The translations under genes were made by a program, and so were the position numbers. A DNA stretch of 60,246 nt, counting the filler, from Sphacelaria rigidula (lineage: Eukaryota): assembly GCA_964200075.2 (NCBI GenBank). It is 9 parts of 9 records of this genome, joined end to end, with 100 filler letters (N's around TTAATTAATTAA, not from the genome) between each part and the next. Parts side by side here need not be neighbours in the genome. Positions count along the whole stretch, not along the records: positions 20,118 to 26,722 come from CAXNAA020019104.1; 8 more parts are not named here. One strand, 5' to 3'. The notes under the pieces were generated by a model that saw only the letters and a list, made by a program, of their open reading frames with translations, had not been told where the DNA came from and made no database searches. Below are positions 21,540 to 24,500 of this stretch, piece by piece (position 1 is the first letter of the stretch; each line of letters starts with the position of its first letter).

Positions 21540-24500
21540 TCTACACGTAAATCGATACGAAAAAAGCCGGGCACAACGAGCAGCTTCGAAAATCAAGGAT
21601 TGGGGGGGGGGGTTCGCCGTAGTCGTCTCGACGAGTCGCTTCATACACCCTGAAACCAAATATCAGGCGCTGTACGGCCACTTCCTTCGTGGGGGGGTCG
21701 GGCTGGTTCTTTGGGGGGGCTACCTCAGCCTGCCTATGAGGAAGATGAAGCGTCGACGACAAACCACGCCACGAACCGGACGCCGACGCGAACAGCGCCG
21801 AAGTCGTCATGATCGAATGAAACAGTTCACGGCCAAATTTCATGGGCATTACGGGGACTTAGCATAAATGAGCTTCACTGAGAGTTCAACATCACTGCTA
21901 AAAAAGCGATACCCACGCCACTTACGCGACTCGATGAGCATATCCCTGTTACCCGTCGACAGATATCCAGAACCATGTAGGAAATACGCATGACCTACAG
22001 GCTAAGGCATGAAGGACCGAGGCAGCCACCGTCTCCGTCCTGCCACAAAAACAATTCAAGAACTTCTCGACGCGTAGGGGAAACGAAGCACCATTGCTTT
22101 CTTCGTCGGGGTCAACATGTATTCGAGCACGATACAACGGAGGGAAATCCACTCGGCGAGTTAGGCCGTGTAAAATGGCGAGCGGTTGCTTGGGCGTAAT
22201 GGTGCTCCCCCCCCCCCCCTATAAACGTCCCGGATAGGCCTCCACACTACGTCTGTGACACCAACTCTTTTTGTATTGGCCGACCGAACTCCCTCCCCGG
22301 GTGGTACGTCTCTTCTCTACGCCTCTTTTCGTCTTACGCCACATCGCGGCATTCGCGGCAGACTTAGGGAACTCCCGTTCTTTATCCATAACCCACTGGA
22401 GGAGGGATCCATGCCCATCTCCGGGGGGGAAATGTGCCGCCTGGACACTTCTTCATTAAACTCTGATTGAGACAGTTTATTTGCGCCCTTTTGGGGGGGC
22501 GTTGTCCAATACGGTGCGAATACGTAGGCCGTAGAGATCTCATATCCTTCTTTGCGGATGCGGTCGCCCACGTTTAGGTTCCGAGCATGTGGACGCTCTT
22601 GGGTTGTTGTGGAGTCGTCGCGTTCCATTGCATCTTGCAGGTTAGTAACCACCGCGTTTCACACGTCCGCCTCCTTATTGGGGGTCAATCCTGCCGAGAT
22701 CGTAGCGTGGATTTCGTTGATAACCTGTCGCACCTTCGCCGTAACACTGCGATGCAAATGTTTGGACGGGGGCAAAGGACACCGACGTGTTCACGCACCT
22801 CGCGATACGTAGCGTTCTCGAATGCCTCGTACAGACTAGGGAACTGTGAGAAATAAACACTCCGGCGACACAGATGGCGCCGTCCCGGTTTGAGAAACCG
22901 GGGGGCGTTACCTTCGTTTAAATTTATCGCGAGGCGAGTACCGTTATTTCACATTATTATTGTATCTCTGTCTGTACAGTCAGATGTATGTAGTTTGTCC
23001 GTTACTTTCTAATTTCCTGCACGCGTGGATGTAATATATCCTCACCCATCAGGAGGGTGAACGGCACTTGCACCAACCAAAGCGCCACCACCGCCTACTG
23101 CCATAGGACTGCCCGTCCTCCCATCCCTGTGGTGTTCGCTGACGGCGTCATCGGGTCCCGAGTGGGAGGGTGATTCGGATCCGCTTGAATCATCTTCATC
23201 GGATGAATAGACGCCACCTTCCTTGTGTCGCTTCTTGGTGGAGACCATCGACTCCTTATTGTTCAGATCACTATGACAACTATCCTCTTCACGGTCTCTG
23301 TCTCCGACGACACCCTTGTCGCGGGAGTCGCCCACATCAAATTTACTTCCCCTTCTGCGCGGACTTCACCCGCACGCCGCGCCGCCGTGCGCCTGTTGAC
23401 ATTATCTCCACTATCGGTACCACGAACAGCGACAGTGCCATCCTCCAATGAAGAGACAGGGTTCGGCGGTTGTGAAGGAGGCACCGACGAGGTTGTATCT
23501 GAATTAGGGGCTGGGGACACGCAGCGCTTGCCCCCCTTCCTCCGCTTAGCGTTAGGCGCGCGTGTGCCTGCGCCACGTCTCTTGTCGGCGGCATGTCTGC
23601 CCGTTTGCAAGCTGTTGTCGGAAGCCCCAACGCTGGTGTGGTCCCCCCCCCCCCCACTCGGTCACACGACTAAGGCAAGCAACAAATGAGTACGCTCCCC
23701 CACTCGGTGTCGTATCCACGTCGATAATCCCATCGGCAACGGCATTACCGCGCCCGGCATCCTCCATACCACCATCATCACACTCCGTAGGCTCGTTTAC
23801 GTCGCCGGGGGGGGGGGGGGGGGTGGAGTTTGATGCGCCTTCCCTTTACCCTCCTTCTGCTGCCCGAGCTTGTACGATGTTGATGGGTTCCTGTCGGCAT
23901 AGCAGTTGACATGAAGGCGGCGATAAGACATCGTGCTTATTCACCGTCGATGGTGGTCCTGTGACGAGGAGTTGGGGTCATCTGCGTCGTGGTCATGTAC
24001 ACCTGTTTTTCATACCGCACCATATTCCGCGCCACACTTGCAATAGCTACCACCGCATGGTCAGCATTCAAACATCGTCCTGAACATCTCATCGTCTCCA
24101 CTGTAACACATCGGAGAATCAACAATATCCCGCCCACATGTCGCAGTACACAGCAGCATTTGATATGGTCTTATCAAATCGAGGGTAGAGAGGGGGGCGG
24201 TAGCGTAAGGTCAATGGTGTCGCTAGAATAACTCACCAGTGAGTCTTATTTTGCTTCACTCTTGGGTGAATCCTACCATCGGACCCGCCAATGACCCTCT
24301 CGAGCGCCTCACATAAAGGAAGAGGTACAGGCATCGTTGTCGTCGTCGTCGTCGATCCTGAATTCAATGGTGCGCGCCTCAATGTTGACGTCTGTGCAGA
24401 GATAAGAGAGTGAGGATGAGGGAGTGTGTGTTGCCCTTGTATGTTGTTGGAGTTTTTATGTGTGTTAAATCTTGTGGCATGTAACAAGATTCGCCTACCG

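Follow-up and report, generated by a model that had tools for sequence, protein, structure and literature searches.

A LINE of Sphacelaria rigidula whose copies end in a C-run and probably land in C-tracts, and a non-autonomous partner with the same 3' tail

The systems closest to the one described here are the RTE-X long interspersed nuclear elements (LINEs) of Ectocarpus, for which a published table (PMC12477816, 2025) records RTEX-1a_Ec32 (5867 bp) as 'single EN-RT ORF; (C)n 3'', that is, one open reading frame (ORF) with an endonuclease (EN) as well as a reverse transcriptase (RT), with target site duplications (TSDs) that are 'C-rich', and RTEX-2_Ec32 as '(C)n termini/TSD'. The same table contains RTEX-N1a and RTEX-N1b (607 and 604 bp), with '60 bp 3' end 83% RTEX-1/RTEX-2' and the remark 'can be present in tandem', and RTEX-N2 (188 bp), which 'could be SINE' (short interspersed nuclear element). 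The portions of that paper's text and table covered here offer neither a mechanism nor a target logo, nor do they note that the reading frame terminates within the tail; in its main text the term 'C-rich' is absent, and the C tail is undiscussed in the passages covered. For RTE-clade LINEs, the terminal tail repeat was found to correlate with the first base of the TSD, and either pairing between the RNA end and the target or a choice of cut site guided by the RNA end was proposed (PMC6007223). RTE-X elements are abundant in bivalves (PMC10294476), and RTEX-1 has been named in Saccharina, in a paper whose portions covered here leave tails unmentioned (PMC4421812). Here we describe a LINE of Sphacelaria rigidula, found in a window (the whole stretch of DNA that was analyzed) of 60,246 nucleotides from assembly GCA_964200075.2, together with a non-autonomous element, family B, that has the same 3' end. 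That the repeats in question are copies of one retrotransposon without long terminal repeats (non-LTR) and of family B, and that their duplications are led by C, is close to certain. We further propose, with a rough probability of 0.72, that this LINE carries a C-tail and lands in C-tracts through pairing of a G-primer with an oligo(C) RNA end, and that it is of the same kind as the RTE-X elements of Ectocarpus.

The original prediction held that every visible 3' end of these repeats stops at one tail motif followed by a run of C, never poly(A), and this was borne out at every coordinate that it listed. In a scripted census of 12 ends in the window and four on outside contigs (L029, L051, L120, and L121), all 16 tail copies end in ...ATGAGTAC(G/A) followed by 5 to 14 C (5, 5, 5, 5, 7, 8, 8, 8, 8, 9, 9, 10, 11, 13, 13, and 14), and an A-run of at least six within 30 nt 3' of the C-run is present in 0 of the 16. 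Identity between copies is at the random level (26%) in the 30 nt that follow the C-run, versus 49% in the 30 nt before it. Because the downstream DNA is unrelated, the lengths differ and no A-run follows, the C-run is terminal and variable, neither a fixed internal part of the element nor the prelude to poly(A). The LINE tail reads ...GTCTCGAAAGGGATGCGTGGTCAATGGTCA.A.GACTAAGGCAAGCAACAAATGAGTACG, after which the C-run follows on the element strand, and the related tail of family B reads ...GTAGGGATGCGAGGTCAATGGTC.TATGACTATGGCA.GCATGATCATGAGTACA; the two align with a conserved core of GGTCAATGG...GAC...GGCA.GCA...ATGAGTAC. The motif AAATGAGTAC, with at most one mismatch, occurs 13 times in the window versus 3.99 expected, a count reached in 0 of 100 shuffles. 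On the sense strand the C-run is 3'-terminal, the RT domain of the LINE at 53.8-58.6 kb being upstream of the tail on the minus strand, and this orientation is confirmed by an intact outside copy (L130), whose reading frame continues into the tail. A candidate hairpin in the tail was rejected as too weak: it has one 5-bp stem (UGGUC/GACUA, -3.1 kcal/mol) with 0 two-sided pair changes in 11 sequences.

The five flanking repeats that had been claimed, each beginning with a C-run, are present at their positions (Table 1), and the C-rich TSDs known from the RTE-X LINEs of Ectocarpus are seen, as repeats of at least 12 nt, in five of the six copies with a readable 5' junction. The upstream repeat copy, which is plain target DNA and independent of the tail, begins with at least four C or with CCTCC in 5/5. 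Insertions as short as 22-34 nt have clean duplications. At the focal 34-nt insertion, a C13 run (23643-23655) ends in the upstream CCCCCACTCGGT repeat, and GGT (23660-23662) at the 5' junction is common to target and LINE, a microhomology of 3 nt. When contigs of four public sequencing runs were placed on the piece at 20118-26722, loose contig ends before 23660 extended as ...CTCGAAAGGGATGCGTGGTCAAT, which is LINE sequence, in four runs (agreement 0.75-0.98), and this identifies the 34-nt insertion as a longer element copied with 5' truncation; the loose ends behind 23701 gave a C-rich consensus of low agreement (0.48 for 14 contigs in X4, 0.49 for 5 contigs in X6). Three of the five insertions lie in or beside the C-tail of an older element (2461-2520, 13474-13574) or a C13 tract (23643). 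In the tandem case at 13413-13574 both units are 94% identical to the L130 tail, each is then followed by TCA(A)CCCAT(A/G)CCA, and the C-tail of the first unit holds the second.

Table 1. Copies, flanking repeats and C-runs in the window (positions count along the whole window)
Feature	Positions	Strand	Remarks
Degenerate near full-length LINE	53775-59880	minus	C8 at 53775-53782, last element base 53783
RT domain	54991-55648	minus	Pfam RVT_1, E=5.6e-15, residues 951-1169, frame from 58498
Second degenerate LINE copy, 3' ~3.9 kb	2508-6439	minus	ends ...AAATGCGTA + C13 (2508-2520)
LINE tail + C8	33360-33427	minus	cut by piece end; 68/68 nt identical to L130 tail
Focal 34-nt 5'-truncated LINE tail	23663-23696	+	93% identity to L130 tail
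CCCCCACTCGGT repeats, 12/12	23651-23662 and 23697-23708	+	flank 34-nt insertion
Micro-insertion of 22 nt, ATGAGTACA-CCCC-ATGAGTACA, then C9	2478-2499	minus	inside C13 tail of LINE copy 2508-6439
C-run + TGCCTCAG repeats	2461-2477 and 2500-2520	minus	flank 22-nt insertion
Two tandem LINE-tail units	13413-13482 (C9) and 13495-13560 (C7)	+	90% mutual identity (family D12)
Imperfect C-run + TCA(A)CCCAT(A/G)CCA repeats	13474-13494 and 13554-13574	+	
Family B copy, 113 nt	27517-27629	minus	between CCCCTAGG(A/G)AGGG repeats
CCCCTAGG(A/G)AGGG repeats, 12/13	27504-27516 and 27630-27642	minus	flank 113 nt of family B
Family B tail fragment, 62 nt	50529-50590	minus	between CC(T/C)CCGGTAAGTACCG repeats
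CC(T/C)CCGGTAAGTACCG repeats, 15/16	50513-50528 and 50591-50606	minus	flank 62 nt of family B
Family B, 5'-truncated	20562-20871	+	ends ...ATGAGTA + C14; 81% identity to 39335-39644
Family B copy	39330-39644	+	ends ...ATGATTACACCT + C8; 5' flank C-rich
Family B head-to-tail pair	40015-40132	+	tail 40015-40056, C5 40057-40061, next head 40062-40132
5' part of full-length family B	42257-42711	+	CCCCCT before head; families D13, D14
Family B head	53712-53759	minus	15 nt downstream of LINE C8 tail
C-run C13	2508-2520	minus	
C-run C9	2469-2477	minus	
C-run C9	13474	+	
C-run C7	13554	+	
C-run C14	20858	+	
C-run C5	23697	+	after GCT
C-run C5	27513-27517	minus	
C-run C8	33360	minus	
C-run C8	39637	+	
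C-run C5	40057	+	
C-run C5	50524-50528	minus	
C-run C8	53775-53782	minus	after GCTCT

The coding capacity of the LINE is seen in L130, the contig behind L121, which has 5259 nt and an intact frame of 1333 residues with an N-terminal, apurinic-type endonuclease (Exo_endo_phos at 144-366, E=7.7e-11) and a reverse transcriptase (RVT_1 at 714-963, E=6.4e-32). Its sense strand holds one frame of at least 150 residues, and no ORF1 was seen. The tail identity at 33360-33427 (68/68) places L130 in the same species or one very close to it. In the window the LINE copies are too decayed for intact frames: a Pfam search of 72 stop-free frames gave no transposon domain, and reading the minus strand of 53650-58500 with stops as X, in a frame with many stops, gave RVT_1, with no other domain of the pair, in this one copy only. 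Positions 276-5164 of L130rc align to 58609-53775 of the window at 74.9% identity over ~4.9 kb, and 8-142 align to tandem repeats at 59078-59839; since the first ~140 nt of L130 match these 62-nt repeats, the window copy spans ~6.1 kb. The array of ~62-nt units (58840-59880, 13 copies listed) is part of the 5' region of the LINE, and the same units open L130. The second LINE copy is 67-74% identical to L130rc 1686-5163. The L130 frame ends ...RKGCVVNGQMTKASNK, with its TGA within AAATGAGTACG (AAA TGA GTACG), 5 nt before C13, so that the protein-coding part includes the conserved 60-nt tail and a 3' untranslated region (UTR) is effectively absent. The closest named relatives of the protein are Ectocarpus proteins of 55-70% identity, and the RT fragment of the window is 44-67% identical to unnamed Ectocarpus proteins. 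One of these relatives (P0044, 70% identity) ends ...NGAPSRKGRVANGQMTTASNK where L130 ends ...NGAPSRKGCVVNGQMTKASNK, with three differences in the 21 C-terminal residues encoded by the tail; relatives at 35-40% identity retain a ..VVNG.. motif at the end. More distant matches are to bivalves (22-27% identity), and these agree with an RTE-X placement (PMC10294476). The Ectocarpus matches point to a brown alga or a near relative as the host, and one of the DNA runs containing the window carries the label algae metagenome. The 5' region of L130 (~4740-4785; element strand ~476-520) also holds part of the element's own 3' tail in inverted form (local score 41, versus a mean of 17.4 and a maximum of 32 in 200 shuffles), which might represent either an inverted fragment nested there or a site of 5'-3' pairing; in the decayed LINE copy of the window, the inverted tail match is not above chance.

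We propose the following mechanism for the insertion of the LINE and its partner. The endonuclease would nick the G-strand of a C/G tract, and the freed 3' end, ending in G, would pair with oligo(C) at the 3' terminus of the copied portion of the RNA. Reverse transcription would begin at this G/oligo(C) pairing, which would set the start point, and a staggered second nick would give a duplication of 12-21 bp beginning with C. The pairing of the G-run primer with the oligo(C) end of the RNA would fit the anatomy of the copies, and we would put it at about two in three. Given how target-primed reverse transcription proceeds, a sense-strand duplication led by C implies a bottom-strand primer with G at its end. 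The site at 23643-23708, with 13 C upstream and 5-7 C at the 3' junction, fits a nick inside the G-run with all 13 C staying upstream. The original prediction had drawn the system as a G:C analogue of target-primed insertion by L1, and this part stands insofar as TSDs that start with C would allow a G-ended primer to pair with C-rich RNA; the analogy is incomplete as to the origin of the tail, as the poly(A) machinery cannot add C, and the C-run must therefore be copied from DNA or made by slippage. We know of no polymerase that adds poly(C) to mRNA. Most likely, read-through transcription of the source copy would supply the C-run, and pairing and slippage would then reset its length. At 2478-2499, the C4 that separates the two 9-nt tail ends suggests a template in which ...TACA is followed by C, with two successive insertions fitting equally well. 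Older tails would become landing sites, and since each insertion would leave a new C-run, this would explain the head-to-tail pairs.

The proposed pairing has to be weighed against an element that ends at ...GAGTAC(G/A) without any C tail, in which case the C-run would always be target DNA and the endonuclease would simply prefer C/G tracts, with no role for RNA pairing. The counts of C upstream and at the 3' junction can be taken in this sense (C13 vs 5-7 at 23643/23697, 5 vs 5 at 50513/50606, and 4 vs 5 at 27642/27513), as can the commonness of C/G tracts, of which the window has 22 runs of at least 8 versus 1.26 expected (maximum 4 in 200 simulations). At the two family B insertions, where the 3' run has 5 C each versus 5 and 4 upstream, a purely target-derived C-run may indeed be possible, and this tells against a C-tail of the element's own. 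What makes such an explanation unlikely is that at least 5 C follow the tail in 16/16 copies, including LINE copies at unrelated sites and the C13 of L130, that the published table annotates the curated consensus of Ectocarpus with '(C)n 3'' (PMC12477816), and that the micro-insertion ATGAGTACA-CCCC-ATGAGTACA has its C4 away from the target, though two insertions are also possible there. The tandem cases (13413-13574, 2461-2520, and 40015-40132) might also be local duplications by replication slippage or unequal exchange instead of insertions, for the 80-nt units at 13415-13574 are adjacent and 90% identical, and tandem duplication likewise yields unit-length repeats. However, the starts of the units fall at different positions in the element and their ends fall precisely after the tail and its C-run, the joint at 40015-40132 connects a tail to a head and not like units, and the same tail stands alone within a perfect 12-nt duplication at 23651-23708; a partner family in Ectocarpus is noted in tandem as well (PMC12477816), and we regard local duplication as quite improbable. 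The variation of the C-run from 5 to 14 among copies of nearly identical tails could finally be put down to untemplated bases, G on the primer or C on the RNA, that the RT or a terminal transferase would add before copying, the run then being neither encoded nor a pairing partner. Some reverse transcriptases do add bases without a template. This account leaves the C-led upstream repeats (pure target DNA, 5/5) unexplained, and we hold it to be the least probable of the three.

Several further points weigh against the reading that the LINE lands in C-tracts by G-primer pairing. The mechanism is inferred at each of its steps, and the sample is small, with five good flanking repeats that were all chosen in the original prediction. 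Flanking repeats of at least 7 nt are absent around one 5'-truncated copy outside the window (L120), the flanks of the family B copies at 20562-20871 and 39330-39644 are C-rich but unclear, and no assembled contig spans the insertion at 23663-23696, so that no empty site was seen. While 7 of the 22 C/G runs of at least 8 lie at recognized tails, 14 adjoin no recognized element, and the abundance of C-tracts may be unrelated to the LINE. The likely placement in the RTE-X clade comes from resemblance and named neighbors, not from a tree. It should be noted, too, that the window combines nine pieces of ~6.6 kb and is not one locus, the pieces being joined by spacers of the form N44-TTAATTAATTAA-N44 at 6607-6706, 13313-13412, 20018-20117, 26723-26822, 33428-33527, 40133-40232, 46838-46937, and 53543-53642. 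Two of the pieces, 3 and 5, have edges exactly inside the LINE tail (start at 13413, end at 33427), which fits contigs broken at a high-copy repeat.

The other half of the prediction, a LINE with a dependent short element, holds in that the EN-RT frame of L130 runs into the tail and family B has the same 3' end. A full copy of family B has ~575 nt, within the range of ~190-600 bp known for such partners in Ectocarpus, and its last ~60-100 nt are common to the LINE. Its layout comprises a head (AGCCTGGTCCGGCG... at 42257), a body (42520-42706) and a second head motif just before the tail, and in the tandem pair the tail, C5 and next head directly abut at 40057-40062. The only full-length copy is broken by an N10 assembly gap at 42712-42721. 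The label 'SINE' used in the prediction is unsupported for family B: neither a tRNA gene nor an Rfam match at the gathering score was found in the whole window, heads of family B included, although a degenerate promoter could escape these scans. Family B is a LINE-dependent non-autonomous element, unsupported as a SINE in the strict sense of one with a tRNA, 5S or 7SL head and a pol III promoter.

Copies outside the window were sought by searching for the tail in public metagenome, viral and prokaryote genome collections. An 18-nt tail core gave 119 loci (L001-L119) in the metagenomes, of which L029 and L051 are the only true copies; the other 117 were rejected as LINE copies, being a conserved bacterial coding motif, ..MGCVVNGPGE.., that contains the tail core GGGATGCGTGGTCAATGG. 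The C-terminus of the LINE protein reads ..KGCVVNGQ..; the bacterial motif is probably that of ispG. The viral collection gave 0 matches to the tail and the prokaryote genomes two (L120 and L121), on contigs within bacterial bins that look like host algal DNA. Further search of these two bins found one more full tail match, on a second contig, and did not find the 5' end of the LINE.

The summed depth of the placed contigs, which is not equal to copy number, was 1,052,150 in the bin containing the 42-nt tail in X1 versus ~430-520 in neighboring unique bins, a ratio of ~2000 that was similar in X3 and X4, and this is a rough sign only of very many copies. Other very high-copy repeats lie at 21002-21222 and 26527-26722 (summed depth 300,000-580,000 in DNA runs). 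In three runs, many low-depth contigs join the tail (23689-23701, at every position) to 23803-23806, before the G17 at 23807-23823. Poly-G read artefacts are a property of two-color sequencers, and these joints are probably such artefacts or cross-matches and support nothing.

The long C/G runs include G23 at 14269-14291, C21 at 42785-42805, C20-T-C10 at 60159-60189, the G17 already mentioned, and C15 at 11434-11448. The idea that orphan tracts are remnants of tails is unsupported, as the flanks of seven long tracts match no window repeat beyond short, chance-level matches; the flank of the C21 at 42785 matches only the adjoining body of family B. We put forward, as a tentative extension that we would at present bet against, that the LINE creates its own landing sites: each insertion, even one of 22-34 nt, would plant a preferred C/G homopolymer, and the family would in this way drive both the ~17-fold excess of C/G tracts and the head-to-tail arrays. 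In addition, the last ~60 nt would have a triple role, as the coding C-terminus with ..VVNG.., as the recognition signal for the RT, and as the part borrowed by the partner. Other repeats in the window are tandem units of 75 nt (8453-8677), units of ~44 nt containing GGCGAGCACTCGAGTCATTGCTCGTTGTGG (51546-52147), and an inverted pair of 168 nt, 18 nt apart (29-671).

The suggestion in the original prediction that a poly(C) LINE would be new does not survive: the '(C)n 3'' end, the 'C-rich' TSDs and the partners are already recorded by the curators of Ectocarpus (PMC12477816), and the principle of matching between tail and target is already in print as a proposal (PMC6007223). A literature search found no other poly(C)-tailed LINE beyond the Ectocarpus supplement, a weak result, as the literal strings 'poly(C)' and '(C)n' are unsearchable. 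The present addition consists of the anatomy and of a mechanism open to testing; the kind of element is not new. The new details are the stop codon 5 nt from the tail, the insertions of 22-34 nt, the landing in older tails, and the excess of C/G runs. If pairing occurs as the anatomy suggests, homopolymer matching of tail and target in target-primed reverse transcription would not be limited to A:T. The compactness of the system, with its stop codon so near the tail and its very short insertions, suits it to the study of how the start point on the RNA and the cut site on the DNA are chosen, and for brown-algal genomics it helps to account for abundant C/G homopolymers and for contig breaks at the tail repeat.

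The LINE is like L1 and Alu in its apurinic-type endonuclease, its 3' homopolymer, and its 12-21-bp duplications that begin with the tail base, and also in frequent 5' truncation, in the 3-nt microhomology at one 5' junction, and in insertions into older tails. The cut site of L1 is TTTT/A. Unlike L1, no ORF1 was seen in L130 and 0 of 16 copies have an A-run, which sets the element apart from the L1 clade; its partner shares a specific tail of 60-100 nt, beyond the homopolymer alone, and whereas the poly(A) of L1 and Alu is added after transcription, the C-run must be templated or made by slippage. It is also like the RTE-clade LINEs and their SINEs (the plant Au-like and animal RTE/Bov-B partners), in which the 3' UTR is likewise very short or absent, LINE and partner have a common 3' end, the first base of the TSD agrees with the terminal repeat, and pairing has been proposed; these elements end in (GTT)n, (CAA)n, (A)n or T-rich tails that overlap the target by one or a few bases, and a T-stretch ten bases upstream is given as a signature (PMC6007223), whereas here the tail is pure C and the shared run has 4-13 bases. 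Closest are RTEX-1 and RTEX-2_Ec32, with a single EN-RT frame, a '(C)n 3'' end and 'C-rich' TSDs, and with lengths of 5.5-5.9 kb versus at least 4.9 kb aligned here, or ~6.1 kb with the 5' repeats (PMC12477816). RTEX-N1_Ec32, a partner of ~600 bp with the last 60-100 bp of the LINE and sometimes in tandem, corresponds to family B. The species differ, and the RT of the LINE is 44-70% identical to Ectocarpus proteins. Likened by the descriptions in the published table and not by alignment to the consensus sequences, the LINE of S. rigidula matches the RTE-X families of Ectocarpus feature by feature, as the same kind of element.

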